The notes under the pieces were generated by a model. The model saw nothing but the letters and a program-made list of their open reading frames with translations, searched no databases and had not been told where the DNA came from. From positions 236,016,005 to 236,080,004 of the forward strand of contig NC_092370.1 of the NCBI RefSeq assembly GCF_030028105.1: a stretch of 64,000 nucleotides of DNA. The letters run 5' to 3'. Of this stretch, positions 1,510-58,343 are shown piece after piece. This DNA comes from Mobula birostris. Lineage: Eukaryota. The translations under genes and the position numbers were made by a program. The stretch's first letter is position 1; each line of letters opens with the position of its first letter.

Positions 1510-1880
1510 TTAATTTGTTACCTCCTTATGGTGCACCTCATCCTTCCCTTTATCCCATAGTCCATTCTCCTCTCCTATCAGATTCCTTCTTCTTCTGCAC
1601 TTACCTCATCCACTTATCACCTTCCAGCCTGTTACTTCATACCGTGTCTTCCACCAACCCACCTCCCTCCTCAGCTGGCTTTGCATGTCACCTGGCAGCT
1701 TGTAGTCCTCCCCTCCCCACCATCTTCTCCCTTCCTTTCCAGTCCTGATGAAGGGTCTCAGCCTGAAACATTGAATGTTTGTTCCCCTCCATAGATGCTG
1801 CCTGACCTGCTGAGCTCCTCCGCCCAGCATTTTGTGTGTGTTGCTCTGGATTTCCAGCGTCTGCAGAATCTCCTGTGTTT
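1510..1880 (+). mobile_element. Penelope-like element terminal repeat (pLTR) with decayed hammerhead motif at 1741-1776
   Basis: AGTC CTGATGA AGGGTCTCAGCCT GAAA CATT followed by the shared tail GATGCTGCCTGACCTGCTGAG...TGTGTGTTGC...CTGCAGA. Confidence 0.75.
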
Positions 1881-1883
1881 CTA

Positions 1884-3266
1884 CATTCAGTGGCCAGTTT
1901 ATTAGCTGCAGCTGTACAGCTGCTCAGTATTGAATTGACAATGTTACCTACATCCTTTATACCCAGGAGGAGAAAAATCTTTACGTTACATCTCCGTCTA
2001 AATGTGCAATGTGCAATTTATAGTAATTTATAATAAATATTGCGTACAACAGCATAGTCAATATAACATAGAAATTCGGTTGTGTCAGCATGAATTAATC
2101 AGTCTGATGGCCTGATGGAAGAAGCTGTCCCGAAGCCTGTCGGTCCTGGCTTTTATGCTGCGGTACCGTTTCCCGGATGGTAGCAGCTGAATAGTTTGTG
2201 GTTGGGGTGACTCAGGTCCCCAATGATCCTTTGGGCCTTTTTTACGCACCTGTCTCTGTAAATGTCATGAGTAGTGGGAAGTTCACATTTGCAGATGCGC
2301 TGGGCCGTCCGCATCACTCTCCGCAGGGTCCAGCGATTGAGGGAAGTACAGTTCCCATATCAGGCAGTGATGCAGCCAGTCAGGATGCTCTCAATTATGC
2401 CCCTATAGAAAGTTATTAGAATTTGGGGGCCCATACCAAACTTCTTCAACCGTCTGAGGTGAAAGAGGTGCTGTTCTGCCTTTTTCTCCACACAGCCAGT
2501 ATGCACAGACCACGTGAGATCCTCTGATGTGCATGCCGAGGAACTTAAAACTGTTGACCCTCTCAGCCCTGGATCCATTGATGTCAATAGGGTGAGCCTG
2601 ACTCCATTCCTCCTGTAATCCACACCGGCTCCTTTGTTTTTGTGACATTGAGGGAGAGGTTGTTTTCTTGACACCACTGTGTCAGGGTGATGACTTCTTC
2701 TCTGTAGGCTGCCTCATTATTATTTGAGATTAGGCCAATCAGTGTCTAATAATGCAAATGTCTAGTCAGCCAACCATGTGCCAGTCACTCAATGCATATA
2801 AGTGTCCAGATATGGTCAAAAGATTGAGTTGCTGTTCAGACCAAACATCTGAATGAAGAAGAAATGTGACCCAGGTCACTTTGACCCTAGAATGATTGTT
2901 AGCATCAGACAGGATTGTTCAAATATCTCAGAAAATGCTGATCTCCTGGGATTCTCACACACAACATTCTCTAGAGTTTACAGAGAATGGGGCAAAAAAA
3001 AAGCAGAGAGAAACAGTGAGCAGCAGTTCTATGGGCAAAAATGCTTTGCAGAGCAGACTAAAAAGGCTAAACTGGTTCAAGCTGACAGAAAGGCAGTGTA
3101 ACTCAAATAACCACACGTCACAACATGGACTGCAGAAGACCATCTTTGAACGCACAGCACATCGAATCTTGAAGTGGATGGGCTACAGCAGCAGAAGACC
3201 ATGAGCATATACTCAGTGGCCACTGTATTAGGTACAGGAGGTGCCTAATAAGGTAGCTCTGAGTCC
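1884..3266 (+). mobile_element. Tc1/mariner deletion derivative interrupted by a Rex1/L2-type LINE fragment (-, about 1975-2745)
   Basis: TIR-like CATTCAGTGGCCAGTTTATTAG at 1884 and a decayed complement near 3244-3266. HTH remnant ISENADLLGFSHTTFSRVYREW. Insert encodes LRRLKKFGMGPQILITFYRGIIESILTGCITA. Confidence 0.75.
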
Positions 3267-3814
3267 ACTTACAGAATTGGTAGGAGATGCAGAACCATTC
3301 AGATACACATCCAGAATTGTAACAGCAACAAGACTCCATTGTATTGACATTTCATTTGGGCTTTTCTCTTTCGTGCGAAGGAGGATGAGAGGCAACTTGA
3401 CAGAAGTGTATAAGATTATAGGCACAGATAGAATGGCCAGCCAGCGCCTTTTACTCAGAGCGGCAATGATCAATACCAGAGGACATTCTTCTAAGATGAG
3501 TGGAGGAAAACTTAGGGGGGGATGTCAGATGAAGGTGTGAGAGTGGAATGCACTGCCAGGGATGGTGGTTGAGGCAGATACATTAGAGACATATCAGAGA
3601 GTCCTAGATAGGCACATGGATGAAAGAAAAATGGAGTGCTATGGGCTGTATGGGAGGGAAGGGAATAAGATCGTGGAATAGGTTGCGAGGTCAGCATAAC
3701 ATTGTGGGTCAAAGGGCCTGTAATGTGCTGTACTGTTTTATGTTTATCTATCTCAATGAGTCTTTCGCTTTTACAATGACAATTGTCATATCTGTCCAGT
3801 GCACATTTGTTTAT

Positions 3815-4167
3815 AATGTGCCATGTTCTTTGACATGGGTGATCATGCTCTGTCCATGACCATGATTGTTCTTGGCAAATTTTTCTACAGAAGTGGTTTG
3901 CCGTTGCCTTCATCTGGGCGGTGTCTTTACACGACGGGTGACCCCAGCCATTATCAATACTCTTCAGAGATTGTCTGCCTGGCATCAGAGGTCGCATAAC
4001 CAGCACTTGTGATCTGCACCAGCTGCTCATATGACTATCCACCACCTGCTTCCGTGGCTTCATGTGACCTTGTGCTACACCTTGCCCAAGGGTGACCTGC
4101 AGGCTAGCGGAGGGAAGGAGCGCCTTACACCTCTCTTTGGTAGAGACGTATCTCCACCCCACCACCT
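3815..4167 (-). mobile_element. RTE-related short element (SINE-like); other pieces at about 17160-17265 (+) and 19727-19968 (-)
   Basis: Three homologous copies in the window. Contains the Bov-A/RTE-like GAAGGCAACGGCAAACCACTTC motif. Confidence 0.6.
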
Positions 4168-6449: not shown

Positions 6450-6825
6450 AGCCCCTAACCTATTACCATCCCCTTCTCCCTCTCTTATGCTATCTCCTTG
6501 CCCGCCCATCCCCTCCCTCTGGTGCTCCTCCGCCCCCTTTCTTCTTTCTTCCATGGCCTTCTGTCTTTTTCACCAATCAACTTCCTAGCTCTTTGCTTCA
6601 TCCCTCCTCCTTCAAGTTTCACCTATCTCCTGGTGTTTTCCCCCTCCCCTCCCCCAATCTTTCAAATCTACTCTTCATCTTGTTTCCTCCAGTCCTGCTG
6701 AAGGGTTTTGGCCCAAAATGTCGACTATACTTTTTTCCATAGATGCTGTCTGGCCTGCTGAGATCCCCCAGCATTTTGTGTGTGTTGCTTGGATTTCCAG
6801 CGTCTGCAGATTTTCTCTTGTTTGT
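6450..6825 (+). mobile_element. PLE pLTR, hammerhead core mutated (6691-6726)
   Basis: Homologous to 19440-19726. CTGCTGA...CAAAATGTCGACT. Confidence 0.72.
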
Positions 6826-7997: not shown

Positions 7998-8195
7998 TAA
8001 ACACGAGAAAGTGCAGATGCTGGCAATCCAAAGCAACACACACAAAATGCTGTAGGAACTCAGCAGGCCTGGCAACATCTATGGAAGTGAATAGATAATC
8101 TATGTTTCGGGCCAAGACCCATCTTCAGGACTGAAAAAGAAGGGGGAAAATGCCAGAATAAAAAGGAAGAGGGAGGGGAAGGTGGTTAGCTGAAC
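7998..8195 (-). mobile_element. PLE pLTR fragment with hammerhead motif 8097-8132
   Basis: Reverse complement reads AGTC CTGAAGA TGGGTCTTGGCCC GAAA CATA GATT. Confidence 0.72.
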
Positions 8196-19140: not shown

Positions 19141-19726
19141 TCCCATTCCCATTCTGATATGTCTATCCACCGCCTCCTCTACTGTCAAGATGAAGCCACA
19201 CTCAAGTTGAAGGAACAACACCTTATATTCTGTCTGGGTAGCCTCCAACCTGATGGCCTGAACATTGACTTCTCTAACTTCCGTTAATGCCCCTACTCCC
19301 CTTCTTACCCCATCCCTTATTTATTTATTTATTTATTTATTTCTGTCTTTTTTTTTTCTCCCTCTGTCCCTCTCACTATAACTCCTTGCTCATTCTCTGG
19401 GCTCCCCTCCCCTTTCTTTCTCCCTAGGCCTTCCATACCATGATCCTCTCCCTTCTCCAGCCTTGTATCCCTTTTGCCAATCAACTTTCCAGCTCTCAGT
19501 TCCATCCCTCCCCCTCCGGTCTTCTCCTATCATTTCTGATCTCCCCATCCCCCTCCCACTTTCAAATCTCTTTCTATCTTTTCTTTCAGTTAGTCCTGAC
19601 GAAGGGTCTCGGCTCGAAACGTCGACTGTACCTCTTCCTATAGATGCTGCCTGGCCTGCTTCATTCACCAGCATTGTTTATGTGTGTTGCTTGAATTTCC
19701 AGCATCTGTAGATTTCCTCGTGTTTG
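19141..19726 (+). mobile_element. Penelope-like element 3' end: GIY-YIG C-terminus plus pLTR
   Basis: Encodes HSDMSIHRLLYCQDEATLKLKEQHLIFCLGSLQPDGLNIDFSNFR*, followed by the pLTR with hammerhead. Confidence 0.88.
19592..19627 (+). ncRNA. Minimal type I hammerhead ribozyme motif (PLE type), intact core
   Basis: AGTC-CTGACGA-A-GGGTCTCGGCTC-GAAA-CGTC-GACT: stem I AGTC/GACT, palindromic ACGT stem III, GUC cleavage triplet. Confidence 0.75.
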
Positions 19727-19997: not shown

Positions 19998-20606
19998 CAA
20001 ACACAAGGAAATCTGCAGATGCTGAAATTTCAAGCAAAACACATAAAAGCTGCTGGTGAACGCAGCAGGCCAGGCAACATCTCTAGGAAGAAGTACAGTC
20101 GACGTTTCGGGCCGAAACCCTTCGTCAGGACTAACTGAAAGAAGAGCTAGTAAGAGATTTGAAAGTCGGAGGGGGAGGGGGAGATCCGAAATGATAGGAG
20201 AAGACAGGAGGGGGAGGGATGGAGCCAAGAGCTGGACAGTCGATCGGCAAAAGAGCTATGAGAGGATCATGGGACAGGAGGCCTAGGGAGAGACACGTTC
20301 CAAGAAAGGATATATGGCTGTGATAGCGAGTCTGAGTCAAAATGTGGTCGAAAAGTTGAAGAGCCGAAGAAATTAAAGATAGGGAGGAGTGAGAGATGGT
20401 TTCACTGAACTCCCGTTGAAGAGAAGATTTAAACTTCTTCAGTGTAGGCATCAGTGGAAGAGGTTTCGCAGTAGTGAATTTAAAAACGCATACACGAGGA
20501 AATCTGCAGATGCTGGAATTTCAAGCAACACACATAAAAGTTGCTGGTGAACGCAGCAGGTCAGGCAGCATCTCTAGGAAGAGGTACCAGCAACTTTTAT
20601 GTGTGT
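19998..20606 (-). mobile_element. Internally deleted non-autonomous PLE with tandem pLTRs, a short inverted end and a 14-bp TSD
   Basis: TSD TGCAGTAA(A/G)ATATT at 19984-19997 and 20607-20620. pLTR end repeated at about 19998 and 20487. ORF start MPTLKKFKSSLQREF...LTQTRYHSHISFLGTCL. Confidence 0.85.
20097..20132 (-). ncRNA. Minimal type I hammerhead ribozyme motif, best-preserved copy
   Basis: AGUC CUGACGA A GGGU-UUCG-GCCC GAAA CGUC GACU. Confidence 0.8.
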
Positions 20607-21339
20607 TGCAGTAAGATATTATTCATTACAGAAGATATTCATATCAACCAAATGTAAACATTAAGTGCAAGTAAGTCATGTTCATTCTGCAGCTTCCATC
20701 CATAGGAAAAAAGCATTCTGAATGAACCAACTGCCTATGTAGAACAGGGAACACAATCGGAGTTCTTCCTCAAACTGAATGTTTGTTTACTGTAACTAGA
20801 AGTTATAGATCAAAATGTCCAAATGAGCCAGAAATTTGAATAAATCCATTTTGAACAAGTTCCGAGATGATTGGTACCATGGGCCTCATTGAGTCAACAC
20901 AATGCAACCTCAGTGACAATTACCAACCATAGGTGGCATTCGATTTGTACATAGTGTATATCTTTTCTTATTACTGTCTACTCAGTCCATGTGGTCACCT
21001 CACGGATGATATACAGTGATATCCCTGGATGAAGTTTCACCAGCCTTCATTCTATCTCTGACATCAAGCACCAGGTCTGTAGATCTTCCTTTGCTCCATC
21101 TGCAGAATTTGAACCTCACTATTTTACCTAAGCAATTAAGGAGAAATCTTTAAACCATGGGCTAAGCAGATCACTACAAAGTTCAGTATCTCCTCCAATT
21201 CATTTTGTTATATCATGGTTATAATTCAGCATCCTTTTGTTTTAGTCAAAGTTAGCATCTAGGCTAGTTAGCAAGTATTAGGTTCTTCCCACGATGCACG
21301 TCATCTGTTCATTACGTGTAGCACCTCATAGCGGGGAAG

Positions 21340-21882
21340 CAAAACACAAAATGCTGGAGGAACTCAGCAGGTCAGGCAGCATCTATGGAAATGAATAAAC
21401 AATCAATGTTTCAGGCCGAGAACCTTCATCAGGATTGAGAAGGTAGGGTGGGAGGGGGAGATGCCAGAATAAAAAGGTTGGGTGGGGTGGGGGGAGAGAA
21501 GGTGATAGGTGAAGCTAGGTGGGTAGGAAAGGTCAATGGCTGGAGAAGAAGGCTGTGGTAGCGGGTCTGGGTGAGTACATGGGCGAAGAGGAAGACAGCA
21601 GAGATCACAGAGGGGGAGCAGCAAGGGAGGGTTTCACAACTCCCATTGAAGAGAAGATTCAAAGTTCTTCTGGGTAGGCATCCCTCGAAGAGACTTCGCA
21701 TGACGCAGCAGGTCATCAACACGGGAGATTCTGCAGAGAAATCCAGAGCAACACACACAAAATGCTGGAGGAACTCAGCAGGTTTATTCATTTCCATAGA
21801 CGCTGTCTGACCTGCGGAGTTCCTCCAGCACTTTGTGTGCGTTGTTTTAGATTTCCAGCATCCGCAGACTTTCTCCTGTTTA
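21340..21882 (-). mobile_element. Older deleted PLE (pLTR + ORF start + pLTR + inverted pLTR tail); hammerhead motif 21401-21436
   Basis: Shares LTQTRYHS with the 20131-20451 ORF. Inverted arms at about 21718-21783 and 21810-21882. Motif AATC CTGATGA...GAAA CATT GATT. Confidence 0.75.
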
Positions 21883-24229
21883 TCACAGCTGTGAATGTCG
21901 TGGGTATGCTATGATGGCGCCAAAAATGTGGCGCCACTTTCAGGTTGTCTAGCATGATCTTCGTTGATCTGATTTGACACAACACGACGGATTTCTCTAT
22001 AGGTTTGATGTAGATGTGATGAATAAAGCTAATATTTCTTTAATCCCAATTAATAGCAGAAGCAATACACACTATGTGCCCACTTCATACTTCAACACCC
22101 TTTCTTCAGCACCTTCAGTAAGAACTTGCTGGTTACTCTCAGACATTTTCTTTCTATTGCCGGGTCTTTCAGCCTTTATGAAGTAAGTTAAGTATTTAGT
22201 ACAAGTTTAATTAGAAAGCTCATTAAGAGTGATAATTATATAACTCAAAATATTTCCCAGTGTAGCAGTACCTCAGTATAACATGTAACAAACCATTTAC
22301 AGCTTTTGTCACTACAAAAGATTTGTATGCATGGGAAGTAGGGAAAATGTGCACATTACAGAGGGGGCAATGGGCTCGTTTTCAACAAATCTGAATCTGA
22401 AGGCAGGCCTGGTTGAAGCATTTTATTCAGAAAACTTGTATTATTACAGGTATGATGCTGGGCCAAGCTGTCAAATATATTTCTGAGATGAAAAATCAAA
22501 GGAAGAACTTTTACAATCATGTTCTTCCATAGGCAGTCTTCTGGGGATTCAGCCGTAAACAACAGCTTGTCAGATGCAACCAGTCTCTTTGAAAATGTGG
22601 TGATGATATTATCAAAAGGAGAAGTGCTCATCTTCCTAGTGAAACTATAGAACTTTCCCTTGGTAATTCCTGATTTTAGAGCTTTGTTTTACACTGTTTA
22701 TTTCTGAACTTTGTCTTCTGTCATGTGAAATGATTCTTCTTCTGTTAGGGCTACATTTCCATATAACTACACTTAGCGGGAATATGTCTTCAAATCTCTG
22801 AAGAGGGTCTTGAACTAAAGAACAAAAGTCCTGGTGCAAAGCCAAGGCTGTCACCCAATGAAACTCAGAGTGTACATCCACACGTCCTGCTACATTAACT
22901 GGATAATGTATTTTACAAGGTCTTGTTAAGGTATGGAAGCTATTTCACCAAAACCTACTGGCAATATACCAGAGTGCATTAATAAAAACAGCTTGAAGAG
23001 TGCAAAATATTTATTATATCATAAAATAAAGCATTTACAAGTTTTGCCACATTACAAATGATGACTACTGCATACAAAACAACAATTCATCTCACCTTTA
23101 TCTTTGAACATAAGAAAGCACAAATGCTGAAAATTGCCATAGTGCTTTCATATCTGCTTTTAACTCAAGACTGTGGTCAATCCCACTTCACAGGCGTGCT
23201 AACCTTCTTTTACCAGAACAAATTCTCTCACTCAGTAACGTATTACTGAAAGGAAAATAGATTCATTTTCAACAAATCTGAATCTGAAGGGAGGCCCGAT
23301 TGAGGACAGGCAGGGATGGAATGTTCCACTTGTCAGCTGTCCAACGGTATTAACTTTATATAACTAACTGGAAAGGAAAAGAAAATAAGCACTCAAATAT
23401 TGGACTTTAGAGAATGGCATTTGCTAACTTTCTATTTGTGCCAATGCATGTTCTTGCTTTGATCTTCCCTACAGCACCCTAATTAAAACACTTGCAAAAT
23501 AATTCAATATGAACACAGGCTTTAAGCAAGCAACAACAATCTGGTGTACCGTTTGTATATTCTGCCTGATTTTCATTTTATAAAGTAGCTGAAAATATGT
23601 CTTTAATTTCCTTTTTAGAGTGCATGGACCAACATGCATTGTCGGGAAGAGCACTTCAAAATAGCTTGTGTAAAACTTACTAAATTTAATCTTAAACACA
23701 AGAGATTCTGCAGATGCTGGAAATTCAGAGTGACACACACAAAATGATGGAGGGGCATTTCCTGATGTCTCAGCTCAAAACCTTCTTACCACAAATGCAG
23801 CCTGACCTGCTGAGTTCTTCCTGCATTTTATAAATTTAATCTTACACCATTTGCTTTTCCTGAAAAAGATCAATAAGCAGACCTCTCCAACTCTTTTTGT
23901 TATGATATATGCACAGCCCTTCTGAATGCAGCAAAAGGCAGCAGAGGAACAAAAATACCATGTTTATGCTAATTTATAGATATCATTTAATTACAGGTAC
24001 TGAGACGTTAGACACTTGAAGAGTACCTCTTCTCCTTTAGTGATAGTCAGTTCTAAACAGTTTACATTCTCTGGGGAAAAAAAACGATTTATTTAGGATT
24101 ACAAGGTATTTGGTCTTCATAATTGTCCACAAAATTTGTTTCTTCAATCAAGGTTTTGATCATTTGTTCCAATGTCTTCGTTATGTGGCATAAGGTCAAA
24201 TTTGTTTATGCTCCTATGGGGTATGTTGG

Positions 24230-28899: not shown

Positions 28900-29374
28900 T
28901 ACATACACCTGGTAGACTACATACACAAGCATAGTTCCAGCCTCAAAAAACTGAGTAAGTTGGTGATAAACTAACTGATTGATTTTAAAATCCCTTTCCT
29001 CTAATGTCTTCCATCAAAATACAGAGCCCCACAAAGCCTATTTTGTAACTCAAGATCATAAACATGAGATTCTGCATAGCTGGAAATCCAGAGCAACACA
29101 TCCTAAATGCTGGAGGAATTCAGCAGGTCAGATAGCATCTATGAAGAAGAATAAAGAGACAACATTTTGGGCTGAAACCCTTCATCTGGACCTCTATTAG
29201 TTGACTGTTTATTCCTCTCCATAGATGGTGGCTGATATGCAGAGTTGCTCCAGCATTTTGGGTGCGTTAGTCTATTCTGTAACTGCACATGCATCTGCTA
29301 CAATGGATGATTATTACAGCCCAGCAGAAAAAGATTTTGTGGCATTATCAAACAAAACTCTAGTGATTTTTTAC

Positions 29375-41640: not shown

Positions 41641-42990
41641 GCATAAAACCCAGTCATATTTATATATGGTATTTCATCCAGAAAAGCAGTACTGCAACAC
41701 TCCGTGGAGAGCGGAGGGGGTGACAAGGCACAGAAGTAGTATTGGCCATCCACTGCAACCAAGGAAAACCCAGTTGGGAATTCTGGACCCAGGCCACTGG
41801 GGTTGAAAGAATGGAACAGCCCTAGTTCTCTGTCTCCCTCTCTGCTGCTGGAGTCTTGGGTCTTGGGCAAGGTTTGATCGACACAATTTATGGTTTGGAC
41901 TAATTGAGATGAATCTGCAGGTCACCTTATATGTGTTTCTGGTGACTCCCTTTTTATTGCTATTTTAATCGGGGTGGCCTGGCTCTGCAGTCTGCAGTCA
42001 ACGTACCACACAGCGCTAAACTGAACTAAACTGAACATTCCCAGACTGTTTCAAGGCTGTGCGGGTTGGCGTTTAATATACTATGTTATTCGCTTTTTTT
42101 TTGCCGTTTGGGTATTTTTTTTGCACGTTGGGTGTTTGTTGTTTTCTTTGAAAAGGTTCCATGGAGTTTCTTTGTTTCGTGGCTGTCAGTGGCAAGACGA
42201 ATCTCAGGGTTGTGTACTGCACATATATTTTAATAATAAATGTTCTTTGAATCTTTGAAACTCCTAAACAAGCTTTCTTGTCATCGTTGAACACGACGAA
42301 CAACCACCAATGTTTTTCAGAATGGTTTGGTTTCATTGATGAAGCATGAACTGTCAAGTTTGAACATTTATGGCAAGCAATTATTGACAACAGGGAGACA
42401 AAGTACTACTCACGCCTGCATAACTAAGTCACCAAGAAACTGTGGAAAGATAATTTGGTTTAAAGATCCACATCGGTATTCATGAAAAAATTATCTAATA
42501 TTCGCAATTCCGAAGTATACATAACCAAAAGGCAATTTAAGCTTTGGTGTCGTATTTGTGTAAAATGGCTTGTAAATAACTCACATATTCACTTCTAGCT
42601 GAATGATAATCCTAACAATATTAATCAGGATGATAAACAATACTGTATATCATTAAAAAATAAAAGGGCGAACACATTTTCCGAAGTTGATATCCTCGTG
42701 TAAAAAAAATGAAAAGCATATTTGGTGTTAGTCCCGACTGACAGCTGATCCCAGGGCATTTAGCCATCCCTAATGAGAAATACAGTTGGTTTAATATGAT
42801 TAACTGGACGACAGGAACTCACAAAAAAGACAACCCAGGAGGAGGACACGCAAAATAGTTGAGGAACTCAGCAGGTTAGGCAACATCCATAGTCGACCTT
42901 TCGGGCTGGGGCCCTTCATCAGAAATTTGGATGTTATTCTAGCTGACAGCACTCGTTAATGACTACTGACGCGCATTGTTGATTGCTCAC

Positions 42991-43760: not shown

Positions 43761-44551
43761 GTAAGTCTGTCTAAAACATCCTACGGTCTATTCGGCAGTT
43801 CAGTAGAAATTCAAGAAAAATACTTTGCATGATCCATTTGCCCTAAAGTTTGAGTATTGTTGTTATTGGTGCACAAACACGTGAGATTCTGCAGATGCTG
43901 AAAATCTTGGGCAACACACTGAAAATGATGGAGGAGGCAACATCCATGCTGGAGATCCCGATGAGATCTCAGCCCGAAACGTCGACTCCATAATACTGTT
44001 ATCGAAGCATTTTATTTTTCTCCTTAAAATTCAGAGTTAGTACTTTTCCACGTGCTACGATTTTTGAAGTGTAACCATGATTAGCTCTTTAACTCTTAAA
44101 AACAAACTTCGTTTTGGTTATTGTGCTTTAAAGTCTGAATGTGCCATTGTAATTAATGTCACCTTTGAGAGAAAGTGGCTGTTGGAGTAGAAGGGTCTCT
44201 GCCTGAAATGTCGACTGTACTTCCTAGAGATACTGCCTGGCCTGCTGCGTTCATCAGCAACTTTGATGTGTGTTGCTTGATCTAATTTACATCCTAGATT
44301 GATGTTTTATTGGTAGATTATTGTCATTCTCCAACTTGGTTTTGTGTGACTAATTGCATCTAGTATCTACTGGTAATTCAGTTTTGGTGAAGGATGTCTG
44401 ACCTAGCACATTAACTGTTTCTCTTTCCAAAATCTGGTTTGAGCAAGCTTTTTGCTTTGATTATACATTTCTGGGCAATTGGGCCAGTGGGCTGGGGGAT
44501 GGGATAAAGGGCCATTAATCCTAAACAAAAATCAAGTCAGTGAATTATAAA

Positions 44552-44991
44552 CGCAAACAACAGGAATTCTGCAGATGCTGGAAATTCAGGCAACACACAT
44601 CAAAGTTGTTGGTGAACGCAGCAGGCCAGGCAGCATCTCTAGGAAGGGGTACAGTCGACGTCTCAGAACGAGACCCTTCGTTAGGACTAACTGAAGGAAG
44701 AGTTAGTTAGAGATTTGAAAGTGGGAGGGGGAGGGAGAGATCCAAAATAAGAGGAGAAGACAGGAGGGGGAGGGATGGAGCCAAGAGCTGGGATCTTGGC
44801 TCCATCCCTCCCCCTCCTGTCTTCTCCTATCATTTTGGATCTCCTCCTCCCCCTCCCACTTTCAAATCTCTAACTAACTCTTCCTTCAGTTAGTCCTAAC
44901 GAAGGGTCTCGTTCTGAGACGTCGACTGTACCCCTTCCTAGAGATGCTGCCTGGCCTGCTGCGTTCACCAGCAACTTTGATGTGTGTTGCT
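44552..44991. mobile_element. Fold-back (palindromic) PLE pLTR insertion in NPC2-A intron 1
   Basis: 197-bp inverted arms 44590-44786 and 44794-44990 with a 7-nt spacer. Perfect TSD GTGAATTATAAA at 44540-44551 and 44992-45003. Confidence 0.92.
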
Positions 44992-45089
44992 GTGAATTAT
45001 AAAGGTTGGTGCTTTGACGGTATACCAGTGCAACACTAACTTCTGGTACTAGCTATAGTTAATCTCTATCTGTATTCATTGTATTGCAG

Positions 45090-46224: not shown

Positions 46225-46890
46225 CATACATCTACTGATGCTTCTGGCCACATCTTCAGTGATGTTCCTGGAATCATTGAGTGTTTCGGGTCTTTCAACA
46301 TCATACAACCTCCTCCAGGTGACCCAGCCGGGCTGATCAGACCCCAGCTTGTGTCCAGATGGCTAGCTACTTATGACTCCATGGCTCCCCCATTTTGAGC
46401 CACAGCCATTTTGAGGCCCTGTCTGCCGCATCGGTGGTACTGCGGATGGCTCTCCTCTTCCTCTCCCCCTCGAAGCCCAAATTGCTGAAGGCTCTAACTA
46501 AGGAACGGGTTGCAAAACCCCTACAACCAACCTCCACTGGGCAATACTGACAATAATTGTTGTCATGGCTTGCAGCTTCCTACCAATCCTTTCCTTCACC
46601 ATTTCCTCCAGAATTTGGTTAACATCTTCATCAAACTGCTTCCACAGTGAAGTCATGTTAGCTGCAGGCCATTTGATCCGCCTCCTGTTAGACTTCGTAT
46701 TAGAGGGATTAGTTTGCAACACTTGGAGGTTCCGGGCACTATGGGGTGACCCCGGGCCTGGCCCCTCCTTCGTCTCACCAGGTTGGACACCTGCGCGTTG
46801 TGCTGCTCCTGCTCCCGCCAAACACTTCATCCTCGCTTGGTGGATCGTCAAGCCACGATCGTCCTTGCAGATTTTGCCACATGCATACTG
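46225..46890 (-). mobile_element. Internally deleted HERO-like (restriction-like endonuclease) non-LTR retrotransposon in NPC2-A intron 2
   Basis: N-terminal zinc finger CGKICKDDRGLTIHQARMKC and RIKWP...WKQFDEDV joined near 46540 to RLE C-terminus VEVGCRGFA...AADRASKWLWLK, then a 3' UTR. Confidence 0.8.
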
Positions 46891-48977
46891 CTTCCTCATC
46901 ATCATTTGTTCATTGAAAAATTCTTGTCTGCAAGGATTCTCAAAATTCATTCAGGGATTTTAAAATAGAATTGAGAAAATAATTACAAGGAAGAGCTGGG
47001 GTATCGGGCAGCACCTACGGATAGAAGTGGATATCCAGTGTTTCAGATAGAGACCCTTCATCTGGATTGAAAGTTGGAGGAGAGATGGCCATAGCTTAAG
47101 AGCATTTGGGGGTGGGGAGGAGGGTAGGAAGTGAACTCTGGAGATTTGGAACTAAAGACATGCCTGACCAGTATTTTAAGCTTGGATAAGTAACGAAACA
47201 AAATTCACAGGTTGTTTGTGGCTGTGCATCTTGGCAGGCTGAGATTTTGAGGCAATCAGAGAGATGTACTGTAGGCTTGAGGAACGGGATGGCTCTGTAA
47301 ATGAAGGTTAGAATTTTGAAATTGAGGTACTGCTGAGCTGGGAGCCAGGGTAGTTTGCTATCAAGTTCAAGTTTAATTGTCATTGAACCATACATAAATA
47401 CATATGAATGCAGCCAAACGAAACAGTATTACTTCGGAGCCAAGGTGCAAAACACAGTACCAATTGACATACACAGCACAAGGCACATGTAGCACATACA
47501 AGATATCAGTAAAACGTAGTCACAAAAAAAATGTCCCTGAGCACATGAATGTTGGAACAGTCTGCAGTTGAACACAATACAGCTTGACTTCTGCCAAGCA
47601 AACGCTGGGACGGGGGTGTGGGGGGCACCACTGACTGCAGCTTGGACATGTGTCACACTGCCTCCGATGGGCCATCTCTCATGGGCAGCTGTAAACGGTA
47701 ACACTGTGGCCTGAGGCGGAGTCCCCGCTGCGGCTGAGCCTACACTGCTTCCTTGCCGTCTGCTAATAAATTACTGAATCAGATTTGCAGCATTCCACAT
47801 TAACAATGTCCAACAGAGTCTTGCTGTCACAAGATGAGTTACTAAGATGATCACTTGCTGTTAGACTGCACACCGATTCCTCCGACGCCTTTCTGGTGCA
47901 TATTCCACATCCAAGTTCAGCTCCTTCAGTTTCTCAGCCAACGAGTAACTCTGTGATGGGATAGACCTGCAGTTCTTAATGGCCAGCAGAGTCCTGTGAT
48001 CTTAAAAAAAAAAATAATAAAATGTTTAAAAAGGACAATACCTTTGGTTGGCCCTGTAGACGTCGTTGCGTTTGAACATACTGCCATCTTTCCAGAAACT
48101 TAAGGGAAAATGGTGGGAAGTCCACTTTGTTCATGTTCAGTTTCAAGTTATTGTCATTCAACCATACACATGTATACCAGTAAATAAAACAACGTTCCTC
48201 TGGGTCAAGGTGCACAACACAGTACATACAACTTGTACACACAAAGCATAGTAATATTACCACAAATAAATGAACAAATAAGGTGCATTTATGACATGAC
48301 ATGTATTATGAACAAAAGAGTTTTCAGTCAACTTTATGGTGAATAGAATAAGGGCGAAGGTAGAGAGTGTTCTGTAATAGCTGGGTGTCCAGATAAAAGC
48401 ATGGATGACAATTTCAAGGGAGATTTGCAGAGTGGAGAGAGGATATGCAGGTGGAAGCAAGTCTTTCTTGAGCAGATTAGTAAATTGACCTGGAGGAAAG
48501 TTTTGGGAAAAGCAAAATTGTTATTAAGGGAAACTTAGAAAACCCACTACTGTAAAATTAAATAAACTAGATTTGATACAGTAATAAAGGCAGCTTTGTC
48601 TGACTTTAAAAGGCTCAATCAATTAATCTAGATTCCATGTACAGCTCATTATCAGCACTACCAATGCCAAACTTGCATACTCTAATTTTTAATATTCACC
48701 AACATATTTTCACTTTTCATTACAAATTTTGTCATGTAATTAAAATTCTGGATGAAATTGAAGAGCCTTTTAGGCTTCTGAGTGCTAGAACAATATTTAA
48801 GCTTTTCAAAATGTAACAGTAATGGATTGCTTGGAAATGTAAAGTGTGAGCATTGCAACTTCTATTGTGAAACATGCCCTTTGTCCCAGTTAGCAGAAAT
48901 TATGACCCTATGTACTGCCCTTCCTCTGAAACCTGGCCTTGAATCAATGAAGGCTAACTGTTATAATTTCTTCGCAG

Positions 48978-49150
48978 AAACATCGAGTCAAAAAACTGTG
49001 GCTGCGGTTTATGGCATTATGAATGGCATTGCAATCCCATTTAATATTCCTAATGCTGATGGTTGTCAATCTGGGATTCAGTGTCCCATTCAGAATAATC
49101 AGAACTACCACTACCTCAACTACTTACGAATAAAAAAGGAATACCCATCA
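48978..49150 (+). CDS. NPC2: NPC2 (copy A) exon 3 (TSSQKTVAAVYGIMNGIAIPF...DGCQSGIQCPI...KEYPS)
   Basis: Acceptor ttcgcag|, donor |gtaagt, 173 nt. ML-domain motif DGCxSGIxCPI. Confidence 0.97.
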
Positions 49151-50954
49151 GTAAGTGTCATAAAACATGAATGAATTCTAATATCTTCAACTTAATCATT
49201 GTTTGTCTAAGCCTTGTATGTTATATACTTTAACAAAAGGCATTTTTATACAAGTCCTTTAGAATGCAGGTTGATGCTGAGCTCTGCTCCATTCAGTGAG
49301 GATATTGTATAATAAACTTAGAACATTGAAATTTAAGATGTGTGTATACTTTCTTGTCTTACTATTTAAAAATTTTAAGTAAACTGTTTGATTCCAAAAT
49401 CTGTCTAATTAGTTTAAAATAACACTTCAACAATTCCAGCAGCTCTCACCGGTCTTTCAGTATTAGTAGTGCTGTCCTCCTGATTAATGCAAGAGCTTCA
49501 ATTTCCTTAAATTAATTTCTTAATAGCAGAATATTAGAGAACCTTCTAGTTTGCATTTCCTTGATGTGAGAAACCATGTTGTTGGCATTGTATGATTGCC
49601 ACAAGCAATAAAACAAGGCTGTAATGAGCAATTAACATTTTTAAACTAGTTGCTCTATCAGGTATTTAAAATCTTAAGTTGAATAGTCTTCATGGAATAT
49701 GTTTAGTGAGGAAAGGGTACATCATTTATCTCTTAAAACAAGGTATCCAGATGGTTGTATATCTTGTGATACTGCTTTTGCTTTAGACATCTAAGCTATC
49801 ACTATGAATAATTTGGAATAGTTGAAGTGGAAAGTATTTAAACTTACTACTTGCACGTAGCAAGTTCACTTTCTGGGTAGGTGCAGAATGCTTAAATGCC
49901 ATGTTGTGCTAAATCATGGATGGGTGCCTTTTGCTTTAGTACTTTTTGACGGATCTTGCTCTGGCATATGGCCAGTTATCAGCAAGATCTGCACATTTGG
50001 TCATTCGGAAAATGTAGGTCTAAGTTCACAAGGGTTAACCAACACACTTCCTGGTCTGCTAGCTTGTATCTCAAACAGAAATGTGAAGTCATGCACTTTC
50101 GTCATCCCAGCAAGGACAATTCTGTTTCTGAAGCTGCTATTAAGCTAAATTCTATAGCTTGCAGGTTTGCACACTGTATCCATTCTTGCATAATGTTAGA
50201 CAGCAGATGAATAGGAAAAAGTGAATCTAAATCTGCTTTTAGGAATGCCAGCCTTTGAAGTGATTCAGTGAAATTGAATTTGTGTTAACTTGTTTTATCA
50301 TCTAAATATGCTCATCTTCTGTGAGAAATATACTAAAAGAATGAAAAAATACATTCACTCCACTATGTCTAGTTAATCAGCACACACCATTTAATATAAT
50401 TAAGTGATTTATTAGATTTCCTGGGATGGGAGTTATAAGTTTAGATAGGAGAAGTGGAGCTGCTCTAGAGTCAGGATTGAGAAATGTTTTGGGGTAAATG
50501 AAAGGAAATCATTAATGAACTATTCCAGGATCAGGGAACAAATTTTAAATTTTAGCCAAAAGATAAAAGGAAAATGAGGGAGATTTTTTTGTTTTTGCTC
50601 AAGTTTTTCTGCTTTGTTTTCTGATGACATCTGAGACTGTTCTGCCCAGTACTCAGCCATCTTTAAGCATTCTCATTCTCTCATTTTCTCTGTAATTTAC
50701 TGTATTGTACATGCCTATCAACTCTCCCCTATTGTGTGTGACCCACCTACACTAGGGATAATTAATAGTAGCCAGTTAATCTATCGTACATCTTTTGAGA
50801 TATTGGAGGAATTGGAGCACCTTGAAAGTAGGTGAAAATGTGCACACAGACAGCACTGAAGGTTGGGTTGAACTGACTGCTGCGCCATGGAAACATGGCC
50901 AATCATTGCATCAAAGTGAATTGTTTAGAGAATTTAAGAGCTGTAATGAACATG

Positions 50955-51080
50955 CAGGGTCTCGGCCTGAAACGTCGACTGCACCTCTTCCTAGAGATGC
51001 TGCCTGGCCTGCTGCATTCACCAGCAACTTTGATGTGTGTTGCTTGAATTTCCAGCATCTGCAGAATTCCTGTTGTTTGC
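50955..51080 (+). mobile_element. 5'-truncated PLE pLTR (hammerhead lacks CUGANGA)
   Basis: AGGGTCTCGGCCTGAAACGTCGACT followed by the young-subfamily tail. Confidence 0.8.
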
Positions 51081-51956: not shown

Positions 51957-54174
51957 ATTGCAGATGAATGTGAATTTTTAATGTCTGAGGTCCTTAATGG
52001 GAGATCTATCAGGAAAGATGGGTGGCTTTCATTTTGGTTCTTTGGGTCTTGGCATTGAACCAATGGGGCAGCCTTAACAGGATGGGTAAGTGGGCAGTTT
52101 GAAGTGGTATATTAATCTTGCTATCCTCTGCAGCACGGTCATTGTTGGGGTATTTTTGGGGTTAGGACATAAAGTGAATATTGACTTCAGTGACCAACCT
52201 TCAGATCCGAATATGCATTGAAGATTAAATCTGAAGTGCAACTCTGAACAATGGGTTCCTAAGAACTAAGCTAATTGGAAGACATCACAGTTAATTGGAA
52301 AACCAGACAATTCTGACTTAAATGCGTTGTTTGTGTGTCTGTAGTATGGGTACGAAGGAGGGAAGTGTGAAAGTGATGTAGGGTTTAAATAAACCATTGT
52401 AAATATGGATTTGCTTGAATTGTCCTGAATTTTTCTTTGATCTTTGGTGCATAAAATGTTGAATAGTGTGGACCAAGCAGATCTTTTTCCACCAAAAGGG
52501 TCTCCATTTGATGCTGCTTTGTCAAGTACAGAGGCTGCTTCATAACTACCAGTACTCTCCCACCATGACTACTTTCATGCAACAACGGTCGTGATCAGAA
52601 GTACCCTGCAGCCTGTGGCATATTGCAATTTTTTTTTAACCTAAGGAAGCTTTGACCACATCCTTGAATCCTTTCCTCCCTCTGAGGTAATCTTTTCCTA
52701 GGCTTGGAAGTGTGTTTCTTTTGAGAGGCAAACAATGACACCTGCCTAACAGAGCTAGCACAGTGCAACTTGGCTTCTGGGGCAATACCGGTTCACTTGT
52801 GTTTCTAATGGATTTGGAGGATATCACAGGGAGATCAGTATCTTCTTGCCAGTGCTTTGAGGCACCTATTGTCAGTAGTCCAAATCCAGGAAATGTAATG
52901 GAGGGCAGGAATCACTGCCAATTCATAGAACACAAGTCCTGGGTGATCTTGGTCCTTTATCTTCAGTGGACAAAGGACATTGTTCATGTACTAAAAATAA
53001 TTGAATTTCAGCAATGCCGAAACATAGAGATTCTACAGATACTGGAAATCCAGAGCAACACTTAAGATGCTGGAGGAACTCAACATATCAGTCAGCACCT
53101 ATGGAGAGGAAACCATCAACATTGCAGGCCAAGATCCTTCATCAGTCATGATAAAGGGTCTGTGCTTGAAACTTCAACTGTTTATTCCTCTACAGATGCT
53201 TCCTGACCTGCTGAATTTCTCAGAATTTCAGCAAAGTCTGCTTTTGAGAGTTGGCTCCTGAGAAATAGGAGTGGTTCACTCTTCCGGGGTCTCTCCATGA
53301 AACATTGTCAGAGGCTTTGTATAGTAGCAGCAGTTGGTGGAGGACCTTGTTTACTGTATGTTGTGGAGGAGGTGACAAGTCTTAAAAGTTTTCCTTCCAT
53401 TAGCCCCGTAGATTTGTTCCAGTTAATCAGAAAAATTGTTGGAGGAGGTGAGGTGAAGCATTTCCACACATGGTAATCTTTCTCACTGATGCAGCTTTGT
53501 AACAGCAGGCTGCAGTGCGTACTTGTTTAATGGTAGCATGAATTGGCACGAACTTGTGGTCAGAGGGAAATGAATTTGTACACGTTGTTGAATTATGGAA
53601 AGTTCACTACTTCCTCCTGTTTGATGTAATCAAGATTTAATGAGATTGTAAAATGCTACCAAAGATATAACAGTTCTGCTCCCTGCATTTCTCCTAGAGT
53701 TGTCACACAAAGGCAAAATGATCTCCGTGGTGTCTCTTGATGGACAAAATCCACCCTATGAACTTGTTTAAGCTGGCACTAATGAAGCTGGGTGATAGCT
53801 TACTAGTAGCTCAAAAGGCAACAACATGACTAAAAACATCATTAATAACACCTTTTAAATTCCAATGAGTACAGGTCCAGAGCCATCAAATGCTCCTCAT
53901 ACAATAACCAGAATCATTCTTGTGAACATCCTCTCAACCCTCTCCAAAGTCAGCACAACCTTTTTTTGGGGGGATAAGGGGTCAAAAACTGCCCACAATA
54001 CGCCAAGTGAGGCTTCACAAGCACCTTATGAAGCCTCAGCATTACAGCTTTGCTTTTCTATTATAGTCCTCTAGAAACGAATACTGACATCGCATTTTCC
54101 TCCCTTACCATCATCTCAACCTGTCAGTTAATCTTCAGGGAATCGTACATGAGGATTTTTTCCCCCCAGGTCTG

Positions 54175-55810: not shown

Positions 55811-56029
55811 AAGGGCATATTTACACAAATCTATTGTCTTTTAATTAATGTGCTATTTCCATTCCTATGTAAAATTAAGGATATGCTATCATATTTGCTT
55901 GCAATAATCAACAAGCCACACAATCATTTGTGAGATTATTACATTGGAGCAGCCTCCAATCCCGGTGGTAGGGAGGATGCGGTAGGGGAGAAATCGGTGA
56001 CATTTAAACTGGGGATAAGGGTGATAAAA

Positions 56030-56490
56030 TTATAGAAACGCTCAGTGGATGGAGGCACATCAGTGGGTAGGGGAAACAGTTAAAATGTTTCACAGCAACA
56101 CCCACAACATGCTGGAGGAACTCAGCAACTATAGAAGTGAGTGAACAGTTGTTTCGAGCCAAGATGCTTCTTCGGGACTGCAGGGGAAGGGAAGGAGGAC
56201 AAGCTAGAGGTGGTAGGTGAAGTCAGGCGAGAGGCATTCAAATAGAAGCCGGGAGGTGATAGGTGGAAAAGGCATAGGGCTGGAGTGGAAGGAATCTGAT
56301 AGGAGAGGCGAGTGGAACATTGGAGAAAGGGAAGGACGAGGCGGTAGGTGAGGAGAACAGCTAGAGGACAAAGTGGCGAAATAAAGGAGAGGAGAGCATT
56401 ACCGAAAGGAGAAGGGATTTCCATGCCATTACGTTGGAAAATATCCAGAAGCACAGCTCCTCCTCCCTGAGAATGAGGAACTGGAAGCGA
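56030..56490 (-). mobile_element. Old PLE remnant abutting the NPC2-B promoter repeat
   Basis: CACAACATGCTGGAGGAACTCAGCA tail, decayed hammerhead near 56145-56180, purine-rich pLTR body. Confidence 0.6.
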
Positions 56491-56507
56491 AGGAGGAGCC
56501 CGCGTCA

Positions 56508-56764: not shown

Positions 56765-56848
56765 AGTGGGGGCAGCGGAGTCATATGAGGCCTCGGAGTT
56801 GGATCCGCTGTCGCTCCTTGCTTTGACTTGGTCGGTTAGGGAAAGGAC

Positions 56849-56942
56849 ATGGAGCGCGGGTGTTGTGTGTTTGCTGGTCTGCTCGTCTTCCTGGGCTTAT
56901 GGGCCCTGTCGGCTGCTGACCCGGTGAAGTTCATGGACTGCG
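56849..56942 (+). CDS. NPC2: Second NPC2 paralog (copy B) exon 1; further exons not found in the window
   Basis: MERGCCVFAGLLVFLGLWALSAADPVKFMDCG: signal peptide plus PVKFxDC, with a phase-1 donor G|gtgagt at the same codon as copy A. Confidence 0.9.
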
Positions 56943-57430
56943 GTGAGTGGTGGGACCTGGTGAAAACTTTTGGTATGGTGATTTGCTTCCCGTGCTCCCA
57001 CCAAACTTCCAGAGTTTCACTCCCTTCCGGTTCTCTTGAAAAGTTTATTAACCGCATGTGTTTTATTTACCGGTGAAATTAGAATGCTTCATCTGGACTT
57101 TGCGCCCCTCTCTTTAATTTCCAGGAAGACAAGAGTAAACGCGGGCCACCCACTGAATACGGTGCCAGAGTGTGCTGGCTGATTCGACCTAACTTTCCTG
57201 TGGTGGATCGGTGGGGTGATGGTGTGTGTGATTCACTTTCATGTGATGCAGACTGAGTGGGTTCCAGACAAATGTTTCTTTATGGAGTTACTGCTGATAA
57301 CAGACTTGTTCAAAACAATTAATTGGCACTGAAAACAACAGGAATTCTGCAGATGCTGGAAATTCAAGCAACACACATAAAAGTTGCTGGTGAATGCAGC
57401 AGGCCAGGCAGCATCTCTAGGAAGAGGTAC

Positions 57431-57466
57431 AGTCGACGTTTCAGACCGAGACCCTTCGTCAGGACT
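57431..57466 (-). ncRNA. Minimal hammerhead ribozyme motif, intact core
   Basis: AGUC CUGACGA A GGGUCUCGGUCU GAAA CGUC GACU. Confidence 0.72.
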
Positions 57467-58307
57467 AACTGAAGGAAGAGTGAGTAAGGGATTTGAAAGT
57501 TGGAAGGGGAGGGGGAGATCCAAAATGATAGGAGAAGACAGGAGGGGGAGGGATGGAGCCAAGAGCTGGACAGGTGATTGGCAAAAGGGGATACGAGAGG
57601 ATCATGGGGCAGGAGGTCTGGGAAGAAAGCCAGGGGTGGGGGGGGGACCCAGAGGATGGGCAAGGGGTATATTCAGAGGGACAGAGGGAGAAAAAGGAGA
57701 GTGAGAGAAAGAATGTGTGCATAAAAATAAGTAACAGATGGGGTACGAGGGGGAGGTGGGGCCTTAGCGGAAGTTAGAGAAGTCGATGTTCATGCCATCA
57801 GGTTGGAGGCTACCCAGACGGAATATAAGGTGTTGTTCCTCCAACCTGAGTGTGGCTTCATCTTTACAGTATAGGAGGCCGTGGATAGACATGTCAGAAT
57901 GGGCCTCCTCTACTGTAAAGATGAAGCCACACTCAGGTTGGAGGAACAACACCTTATATTCCGTCTGGGTAGCCTCCAACCTGATGGCATGAACATCGAC
58001 TTCTCTAACTTCCGCTAGGCCCCACCTCCCCCTCGTACCCCATCTGTTACTTATTTTTATGCACACATTCTTTCTCTCACTCTCCTTTTTCTCCCTCTGT
58101 CCCTCTGAATATACCTCTTGCTCATCCTCTGGGTCCCCCCCCGTCTTTCTTCCCGTACCTCCTGTCCCATGATCCTCTCGTATCCCCTTTTGCCTATCAC
58201 CTGTCCAGCTCTTGGCTCTATCCCTCCCCCTCCTGTCTTCTCCTATCATTTTGGATCTCCCCCTCCCCCTCCAACTTCCAAATCCCTTACTCACTCTTCC
58301 TTCAGTT

Positions 58308-58343
58308 AGCCCTGATGAAGGGTCTCGGCCTGAAACGTTGACT
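58308..58343 (+). ncRNA. Minimal hammerhead ribozyme motif, sense to NPC2-B pre-mRNA (GUU triplet, one stem I mismatch)
   Basis: AGCC CUGAUGA A GGGUCUCGGCCU GAAA CGUU GACU. Confidence 0.6.

Follow-up and report, generated by a model that had tools for sequence, protein, structure and literature searches.

A 36-nt motif resembling a minimal hammerhead ribozyme recurs on both strands of a 64,000-nt stretch of the Mobula birostris genome (the window; contig NC_092370.1). The locus raises the question of what has dispersed this motif and whether the ribozyme cuts the RNA that is copied into the genome.

Hammerhead motifs in the window

Window copies were scored on both strands with an ungapped 36-nt profile, which is partly circular as its seed was eight window copies. 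Motif positions are numbered from the first base of stem I (i.e. position 1), which puts the predicted cut site at 32/33. At thresholds of 20 and 8 bits the search returned 18 and 23 copies, as compared to 0 and 0.83, respectively, in thirty order-3 Markov controls (maximum 15.5), indicating that the recurrence reported in an earlier note on this DNA is real. Seventeen of the 18 coordinates given there were recovered among the 18 copies above 20 bits; the loci are present but six are shifted by 1–12 nt (i.e. to 29157, 44181, 47033, 50945, 53114 and 56144). The 43957 copy is gapped and so lies outside the set of the ungapped profile, yet is present in the sequence. Two copies add to that list, 53144(+) and a weak copy at 60771(-) of 10 bits. 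The consensus originally proposed matches no window copy letter for letter, and core and all stems are kept in only three of the 18 copies (i.e. 19592, 20097 and 57431). Three of the four copies singled out as best are intact but the fourth, 58308, has a broken stem I; the hammerhead fold of the 57431 copy amounts to only -0.4 kcal/mol.

The window contains the following features:

57333..57903, minus strand: 3' end of a Penelope-like element (PLE), with a GIY-YIG C-terminus identified by translation (stop 57764), pLTR, hammerhead motif 57431-57466 and tail
57902..58394, plus strand: inverted second arm of the 57333 insertion, with endonuclease C-terminus, pLTR, motif 58308-58343 (stem I broken) and a shorter tail
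19141..19726, plus strand: 5'-truncated copy with endonuclease C-terminus, pLTR, motif 19592-19627 (core and stems intact) and tail
19998..20609, minus strand: one insertion, 14-bp duplication with one mismatch
44539..44998, minus strand to 44791 and plus strand from 44794: two pLTR stubs in inverted orientation, with motifs 44653-44688 and 44892-44927 (core broken in each)
21337..21883: older-subfamily copy on the minus strand with a piece of the ORF N-terminus and motif 21401-21436 (stems II and III broken); short inverted tail on the plus strand
1726..1880, plus strand: older-subfamily stub, motif 1741-1776
6573..6825, plus strand: older-subfamily stub, motif 6691-6726
8012..8132, minus strand: older stub, motif 8097-8132
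29061..29192, minus strand: older stub, motif 29157-29192
42891..42926, minus strand: decayed motif
43952..43990, plus strand: decayed motif that a small deletion hid from the ungapped profile; approximate ends
44190..44280, plus strand: young stub beginning at motif position 10
47033..47068, minus strand: decayed motif
50952..51079, plus strand: young stub beginning at about motif position 12
53030..53217: old inverted stub pair, motifs 53114-53149(-) and 53144-53179(+)
56144..56179, minus strand: decayed motif
60691..60806, minus strand: old stub, weak motif (10 bits)

The 57333..57903 copy is 96% identical to a natural full copy (L028), and the whole 57333-58394 insertion is bounded by a 14-bp target-site duplication with two mismatches. 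Within 19998..20609 a short inverted tail comes first, then a start at motif position 37, followed by tail and ORF N-terminus (20290-20587) and by a jump to pLTR, motif and tail; this insertion holds the cleanest motif copy of the window (20097-20132). As noted earlier for the longest copies, those at 19592, 57431 and 58308 have a GIY-YIG C-terminus upstream of them.

An Rfam scan of the window listed no hammerhead family at E≤1. All 48 Rfam matches were hairpin artefacts of the 44.6-45.0 kb inverted pair, none of them meaningful; below-threshold miRNA matches occur because the 44539..44998 pair is a long hairpin, and only two marginal matches, both to this long perfect hairpin, were not below gathering scores.

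The motifs lie in the repeats of a Penelope-like element, probably of the Neptune type

The element is laid out as pLTR, one ORF (i.e. RT, CX4CX2C linker and GIY-YIG) and pLTR, in a unit of 3.5–3.7 kb. The motif lies ~300 nt downstream of the stop of this ORF, whose first Met is about 135 nt downstream of a motif, and the direct order motif-ORF-motif was found at 4 of 20 long-frame loci elsewhere in the genome, with motifs 3,513–3,725 nt apart. The 1,043-codon frame of L028 matched GIY-YIG above the cut-off (E=9e-5) and RVT_1 below the curated cut-off (E=7e-4), with the linker upstream of GIY-YIG. In L002 and L006 the CCHH signature has two Cys inside the GIY-YIG core and two His downstream; one Cys is substituted in L028. 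The nearest named homologues are unannotated Chiloscyllium punctatum proteins (69–71% identical), the sole NCBIfam match was a weak one to a group I intron endonuclease, and PDB gave no sequence match. The linked ORF is, as the earlier note held, that of a PLE with GIY-YIG, and the element is an EN+ Penelope-like element with a single RT-GIY-YIG ORF, partial-tandem pLTRs each carrying a hammerhead, 5' truncation, an inverted partner and a tail.

Because whole ribozyme-ORF-ribozyme units occur elsewhere in the genome, the element can be assigned to the Neptune type, a placement read from the linker motif, which is common to Nematis too, and not from a tree. Neptune and Poseidon are the PLE clades reported for vertebrates, and the Neptune clade shares with this element the single ORF, DKG motif, RT, CX2-5CxxC linker and C-terminal GIY-YIG with CCHH, as well as 5' truncation, partial tandems, an inverted 5'-truncated partner and a 30–40-bp tail (Craig et al. 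2021, PMC8557442). Poseidon elements, in contrast, lack the Cys linker, and the ORF of the anole Poseidon element PAc starts inside the hammerhead (PMC11167929).

Copy number and shape of copies

The very high copy number proposed from the window was borne out: extrapolation from 121 matches in a 1.2-Mb sample gives ~400,000 motifs genome-wide, and family matches make up about 5% of sampled bases. This is far above the roughly 4,000 and 9,000 motifs given for coelacanth and Xenopus (PMC4209133), although counting methods differ, and ~10 times the highest figure (37,000 Naiads) in the part of PMC8557442 compared.

Most copies are stubs with a median of 123 nt; among 55 unbiased young copies only 12 reach the endonuclease and two the RT. 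The 3' ends fall at two sites, about 97–103 and about 127–140 nt from the motif start. The stubs match the 3' end of coding copies at 92–100% identity; their 5' ends are scattered, and they share the same two 3' ends. As in PMC4209133, there is one motif per pLTR, and copies are mostly single and truncated or form opposite-strand pairs 100–700 bp apart. Head-to-tail repeats were seen occasionally (L206, L232, L233 and L241). The family had been described as largely non-autonomous, which holds in so far as most copies are short, but the stubs derive, by 5' truncation and often with inversion, from an autonomous element that has many long open frames. Sampled copies and long-frame loci gave no sign of a separate non-autonomous master, and by sequence comparison the short copies are truncated by-products of the autonomous element and no separate family.

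Conservation and predicted folding of the ribozyme

Cervera & de la Pena (2014, PMC4209133) described minimal hammerheads in metazoan PLEs, among them Xena, Poseidon and Neptune of fish, where they lie in the pLTRs; the present one is of this known kind. Cartilaginous fishes are not named in the parts of that paper compared; the Squalomix preprint has no whole-word match to Penelope, PLE or ribozyme. The core (CUGANGA, GAAA and NUH) and helices I and II are present in subfamily majorities, the extra base between 9 and 10.1 is A in 94%, and the majority at 15.2-16.2 is the palindromic ACGU. Subfamily majorities and architecture thus agree with the PLE pLTR hammerhead of minimal type I first suggested. 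Type I topology, 4-bp helix I, the extra base, the missing helix III loop and the palindrome are as in PMC4209133, whereas helix II here has only 4 bp and the youngest subfamily has a G-U pair at 10.1-11.1.

Core and stems are intact in 21 of the 121 sampled copies. Across subfamilies 35/36 and 31/36 motif positions are kept with all catalytic bases unchanged, whereas the adjoining 15–20 nt are only 47–62% identical. The 10.1-11.1 pair is G-C in older subfamilies and G-U in the youngest; exact 34-mers number 24,435 for the youngest-type T version and 6,161 for the C version genome-wide, and T is tied to one upstream haplotype (54/59 copies). PMC544870 was uninformative on G-U at this pair.

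Stem I covariation was not supported at either the second or the outer pair in the variant counts. The 21401 copy does have the AATC/GATT letters once read as a compensatory pair, but double variants (41 seen, 19 expected under independence) point to neutral decay; single variants that break this second pair (1,084) are about as common as those that keep a wobble (1,066), and the twofold excess of doubles would fit a mix of copy ages. Compensation at the outer pair, considered for 197 copies of one subfamily, was rejected as mismatches far outnumber compensated pairs: the first 100 matches listed comprise, by hand count, 63 A-U, 33 A-C mismatches, three G-C and one G-U.

For the youngest subfamily, predicted values for stems I and II were 0.38–0.96 with 0–5 nt of upstream sequence and ≤0.05 with ≥15 nt, a predicted switch that is weaker in the C11.1 copy 20097. 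In the folding models, the isolated motif at minimum energy has its core paired with itself, and for two molecules the minimum differs from the double hammerhead. PLE hammerheads are said to cleave as dimers in work by Lunse et al., as cited in PMC6765202.

An excess of 5' junctions at the first bases of the ribozyme

Genome-wide, 5' junctions numbered 136, 392, 1,003, 1,085, 481, 282 and 227 at motif positions -5, -1, 1, 2, 3, 33 and 37, respectively, i.e. rates of about 0.9, 2.3, 6.6, 7.2, 3.2, 1.1 and 0.5%, which are built on assumed base frequencies and approximate denominators. The peak falls at bases 1-2 (~7% of young copies each) as compared to ~1% at the cut site and <1% at control positions. 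Among the 55 unbiased young copies, eight begin at positions 1-2 and none at 33. Target-site duplications of ≥8 bp flank 10 of 30 position-1 loci, 3 of 870 controls and 0 of 15 position-33 loci. In the second subfamily, 223 junctions lie at position 1, 28 at -3 and 11 at the cut site. False junctions made up 1 of 30 inspected hits in the young and at least 4 of 20 in the second subfamily, and inversion joints account for 12 of the 30 position-1 junctions; at such joints microhomology can displace the apparent start.

At the cut site, genome-wide counts did not rise above about 1%, and most junctions there are inversion joints (13/15 position-33 junctions, with four inverted arms that end at position 1); as the rate at position 33 is about double that at position 37, some cleavage may occur. 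Base -1 is G in about 29 of 100 young junctions listed (hand count), i.e. no cap-derived excess, and in 53 of 100 listed for the second subfamily, where microhomology and target bases confound the figure. Unlike in PMC8557442, (TA)n targeting was unseen in the 30 junction loci inspected. Contigs of four organisms also contained the family, with loose ends at motif positions 1-2. These ends were not counted as evidence, as a contig carries no information on RNA ends and older subfamilies diverge there too.

On this sequence evidence, the pile-up likely marks the RNA start and suggests uncleaved templates. Taken together, the motifs are probably minimal hammerheads in the 3' repeats of one Neptune-type PLE, whose copies are 5'-truncated and often inverted and have starts piled at the first bases of the ribozyme, the likely 5' end of an uncleaved RNA template.

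A proposed route and its alternatives

The pLTR portion upstream of the motif would act as promoter, with RNA starting at the first base of stem I. The RT-endonuclease would nick the target and reverse transcription would start internally at one of the two tail sites, as has been shown in vitro for the anole Poseidon element PAc, in which internal priming yields a tail and cleavage is dispensable for insertion (Frangieh et al. 2024, PMC11167929). PAc likewise has two internal RT start sites ~30–40 nt apart that give the tail, and both strands are primed; a 5'-end pile-up at stem I is seen here, whereas none is reported for PAc in the part of that paper compared. Priming close to the RNA 5' end would run off after 100–135 nt and leave a stub of ribozyme and tail. 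Longer copies would stem either from a template jump or from tandem transcripts primed on their downstream repeat, and two-armed inverted copies from priming at nicks on both strands. The upstream pyrimidine-rich sequence is predicted to pair with the catalytic core, so that the hammerhead would fold mainly when located at the 5' end of the RNA. Cleavage would depend on a dimer (through the ACGU palindrome), perhaps also on the protein, and would probably be rare in inserted RNAs. A fuller version, in which RNA starts exactly at hammerhead base 1, the upstream pLTR switches off the downstream ribozyme and a 'strong-stop' cDNA (primed 100–135 nt from the 5' end) is either inserted as a stub or transferred to the downstream repeat, from which the whole element is copied, is tentative and less likely than not.

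The peak could instead reflect endonuclease-mediated resolution, to which Craig et al. ascribe the tail and inverted pLTRs (PMC8557442). The inversion joints among position-1 junctions, the 3 of 10 duplications that overlap the first two bases of the motif and the 4-nt microhomology offered by the stem I inverted repeat would fit, but the peak is found again in a subfamily whose upstream bases differ, counts drop sharply upstream and taper over positions 2-3 as in polymerase run-off, and 7 of 10 duplicated sites require no overlap with the motif; we consider this explanation unlikely, though the strongest of the alternatives. Position 1 may also differ from the true start: the RNA of D. virilis Penelope begins about 120 nt ahead of helix I, with an intron end at helix I itself (PMC2377424, PMC4209133). 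The landmark there is the intron end, and the intron, of 75 bp, begins 46 bp after the start (Schostak et al. 2008, PMC2377424). With this precedent, the AG at motif positions 1-2, which follows a pyrimidine tract in all three subfamilies and whose A is kept despite a changed stem I partner (33 of the first 100 listed), might be a 3' splice acceptor, and the peak would then consist of splicing-related RNA ends or spliced templates. Unlike in Penelope, however, the 30 inspected junctions share no upstream exon, the upstream sequence being target DNA or inverted element, and no GTRAG donor was seen by eye in the young pLTR. Splicing normally frees no downstream exon end, which also counts against an acceptor, and we regard this explanation as improbable.

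Nearly as improbable is the route proposed by Cervera and de la Pena (PMC4209133), by which dimer cleavage of both repeats and ligation would give a circle that is copied round, with position-1 stubs as a side product of primary transcripts. Conservation of the catalytic core, the slight excess of position 33 over 37 and the uninterrupted course of most copies across the cut site, as a religated circle would permit, are in its favour; the 15 position-33 junctions, however, are mostly inversion joints and none has a target duplication, the most successful subfamily has a weakened 10.1-11.1 pair, the downstream ribozyme copy is predicted to misfold, and cleavage mutants of the anole element insert normally in vitro (PMC11167929). 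That the short copies make up a non-autonomous family of their own, retrozyme- or SINE-like and with separate masters, would suit their length and the few that reach endonuclease or RT. Non-LTR retrozymes are likewise short non-coding units with type I hammerheads related to those of pLTRs, and have been proposed as PLE derivatives (bioRxiv 10.64898/2026.07.22.740005). By the definition given there, retrozymes are tandem arrays in which every unit has a hammerhead, whereas copies here are dispersed truncations or inverted pairs and only occasionally head-to-tail; the near-identity of stubs to coding 3' ends, their scattered starts and common ends, and the lack of an upstream pLTR in a stub beginning at position 1 make this explanation very hard to sustain.

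Significance

The pile-up of 5' junctions at motif bases 1-2 goes beyond the textbook account, the rest of the element being ordinary for its kind apart from a scale far above the published figures compared. The role of hammerheads in endonuclease-bearing PLEs is described as unclear (PMC8557442). Thousands of young junctions provide a natural record of template ends that points to the first base of the ribozyme and not to its cut site, and they make the PLE RNA start and the cleavage of copied RNA concretely testable questions. If the fuller version of the proposed route is true, the ribozyme would serve as a structure at the 5' end, left uncut in the replicating RNA and weakened in the most successful subfamily, and tens of thousands of genomic junctions would record the 'strong-stop' step of the PLE cycle.

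Motif copies and neighbouring features in the window

The window was searched with a 36-position motif profile seeded on eight of its own copies. Eighteen copies of the minimal hammerhead motif scored >20 bits across both strands, whilst 30 Markov controls yielded none (best score 15.5). The coordinates listed in the earlier note were correct to within a few bases and most of its copies were recovered, but 43957 is a gapped copy and 53144 had been overlooked. Copy quality had been overstated: the catalytic core is kept in 8 of 18 copies, core plus stems only at 19592, 20097 and 57431, and stem I is broken at 58308, which had been ranked among the best. An Rfam search of the window listed no hammerhead family; Rfam hammerhead models expect helix III. 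Motif density was 18 per 64 kb as compared to 6.5 per 64 kb in a genome sample, partly because the profile was seeded on window copies. Other frames in the window were as follows.

48782-49174, +, frame with a Pfam ML domain (E=4e-10), resembling a host-gene exon
14896-15990, +, broken LINE-type reverse-transcriptase fragment, RVT_1 match
18645-19157, +, broken LINE-type reverse-transcriptase fragment, RVT_1 match
33718-34212, -, broken LINE-type reverse-transcriptase fragment
30735-31348, -, broken LINE-type reverse-transcriptase fragment
46498-46950, -, frame with a C2H2-like zinc finger, no significant Pfam match
8980-9252, -, short frame, no significant Pfam match

The ML frame is presumably NPC2-like, and given its exon-like character some motif copies may be intronic. 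We take the four LINE-type fragments to be CR1/L2-like, the zinc-finger frame to resemble an R2-like retrotransposon N-terminus and the short frame a Gypsy-type LTR retrotransposon protease/RT junction.

Carrier element and abundance

The linkage of the motif to a GIY-YIG C-terminus was borne out, as at both 57.3-58.4 kb and 19.1-19.7 kb a copy retains the final 38-50 codons of this domain, ~300 nt upstream of the motif. Querying the genome for the RT gave a first-pass set of 89,897 candidates; among the 123 that were scored, many had open frames 500-1,064 codons long. Twenty of the longest-frame loci were fetched, and four exhibited a motif-ORF-motif arrangement in direct order with a spacing of 3,513-3,725 nt. 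The frame of L028, a natural full-length copy used as reference, contains DKG, RT motifs, a CX4CX2C linker and GIY-YIG, and among named proteins the closest relatives come from the bamboo shark Chiloscyllium punctatum (69-71%), which makes a cartilaginous-fish host likely. By the definitions in PMC8557442, these sequence features place the carrier among EN+ PLEs of Neptune/Nematis type; of these two, Neptune is reported in vertebrates (bioRxiv 10.64898/2026.07.22.740005). A ~210-nt internal repeat in the N-terminal half of the ORF was observed at loci L029, L030, L033, L035, L039, L041, L042, L045 and L046 and is missing from L028.

Across the 4.0 Gb genome, 24,435 exact 34-mers carry T at position 11.1 and 6,161 carry C, and a CpG-tolerant pattern matched 59,850 times. 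In 120 evenly spaced 10-kb stretches of large contigs, 121 matches (21 intact) were obtained, corresponding to 4.0x10^5 genome-wide (bootstrap 3.3-4.8x10^5); within the first 800 kb of the sample, 5.3% of bases match the family. Unbiased young copies (n=55) had a median length of 123 nt, with the endonuclease reached in 12 and the RT in two. Their 3' ends form two clusters, one ~97-103 nt and the other ~127-134 nt past the first motif base (the latter's upper limit being set by the end of the reference), corresponding to the two-site tail of the anole element (PMC11167929). Two-armed inverted copies with both tails pointing outward were frequent, and the 57333-58394 copy has a 14-bp target duplication with two mismatches. 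As the short 5'-truncated copies share the two 3'-end clusters and long open frames occur elsewhere, they are truncation products of an autonomous element; the family's description as largely non-autonomous thus holds for copy length but not for origin.

Probable constraint on the ribozyme motif

Majority motifs of three subfamilies (40 of 58, 9 and 4 copies, the last set chosen by a biased pattern) differ at between one and six of the 36 positions and never at catalytic bases, whereas the flanks (20 nt upstream, 15 nt downstream) are 47-70% identical. This sequence pattern, motif kept and flanks diverged, supports constraint of the ribozyme motif on master copies. A second block, downstream of the motif at positions ~50-85, is 68-75% identical across subfamilies as compared to 47-62% in the first 15 nt past the motif, and is a candidate protein-binding or priming element.

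No covariation was detected at either stem I pair examined by genome-wide pattern counts and one sub-lineage listing. The pair at 21401, previously read as compensatory, occurs genome-wide as G-C 59,850, A-C 1,084, G-U 1,066 and A-U 41 times (19 expected for A-U), the A-C mismatch being as frequent as G-U. For the outer pair, a sub-lineage with an A-C mismatch has spread (33 of the first 100 listed). The youngest subfamily has U at 11.1, and the resulting G-U at 10.1-11.1 would be expected to slow hammerhead cleavage. This U is coupled to one upstream haplotype in 54/59 copies, indicating inheritance rather than CpG decay. G10.1-C11.1 is termed highly conserved in PMC4209133.

5' junctions of inserted copies

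Eight of the 55 unbiased copies start at motif positions 1-2, which has P ~6e-8 (post hoc) if the 32 local starts were distributed evenly across 116 positions. No copy of this set starts at the predicted cut site (32/33), and all 137 loci together gave a single start there. Genome-wide, copies in which both preceding bases were non-native numbered 136, 392, 1,003, 1,085, 481, 282 and 227 at positions -5, -1, 1, 2, 3, 33 and 37 (~0.9, 2.3, 6.6, 7.2, 3.2, 1.1 and 0.5%, using assumed base frequencies and approximate denominators of 24,435 x 0.87 (hand recount: 0.90) and 59,215). The -1 count is about that expected from chance extension of position-1 starts plus older-subfamily variants. In a second subfamily, position 1 accounted for 223 matches, as compared to 28 for -3 and 11 for the cut site; 20 hand-picked matches comprised 15 junctions, four with native upstream sequence and one ambiguous. 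Inspection of 30 position-1 loci identified target duplications of 8-14 bp in 10 (control 3/870), 12 inversion joints and one non-junction. Of 15 position-33 loci, 13 were inversion joints, four of these being inverted arms ending at position 1, and none had a target duplication.

Possible origin of the 5' ends

The simplest reading of the pile-up, inferred from sequence, is run-off at the 5' end of an RNA beginning at stem I: an upstream pLTR promoter would drive transcription from stem I's first base, and the polymerase would run off at the RNA 5' end, generating copies that start at positions 1-2. By eye, all three subfamily majorities have an AT-rich island spanning -32 to -24; initiator-like bases surround position 1, and a CCAAT box is present near -120 in the young subfamily (pLTR, e.g. 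L028 2750-2876); these are consistent with a putative polymerase II promoter. Inserted templates appear uncut, resembling the anole element in vitro (PMC11167929). Against this reading, no consistent signal of a cap-derived G was observed at junctions of two subfamilies, and there is a small junction excess at the cut site. The precedent also differs: in D. virilis Penelope, a 75-bp intron terminates at helix I and the start is located 46 bp ahead of this intron (PMC2377424, PMC4209133). A splice acceptor at the motif start is a less likely rival, and no shared upstream exon was found at the 30 inspected position-1 loci. An endonuclease resolution site at the motif start would likewise explain the pile-up; this and circular templates are further, less likely rivals to the run-off reading.

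In the youngest subfamily, the predicted probability of stems I/II was 0.38-0.96 with 0-5 nt of upstream sequence and at most 0.05 with at least 15 nt, an effect predicted to be weaker for the 20097 copy. The folding model thus predicts that upstream sequence acts as a folding switch for the hammerhead. Core-core mispairing was predicted for the isolated motif, and the two-molecule energy minimum differs from a double hammerhead, which agrees with reports that min-HHRs have low activity.

Min-HHRs in fish PLEs, including Neptune, are already published and the family itself is of known type. A survey of the openly accessible literature, mostly at the level of search listings, found no published report of a 5'-end pile-up at the hammerhead start. 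Ordinary in kind, the family stands out for the unusual size of its footprint, which lends itself to testing.
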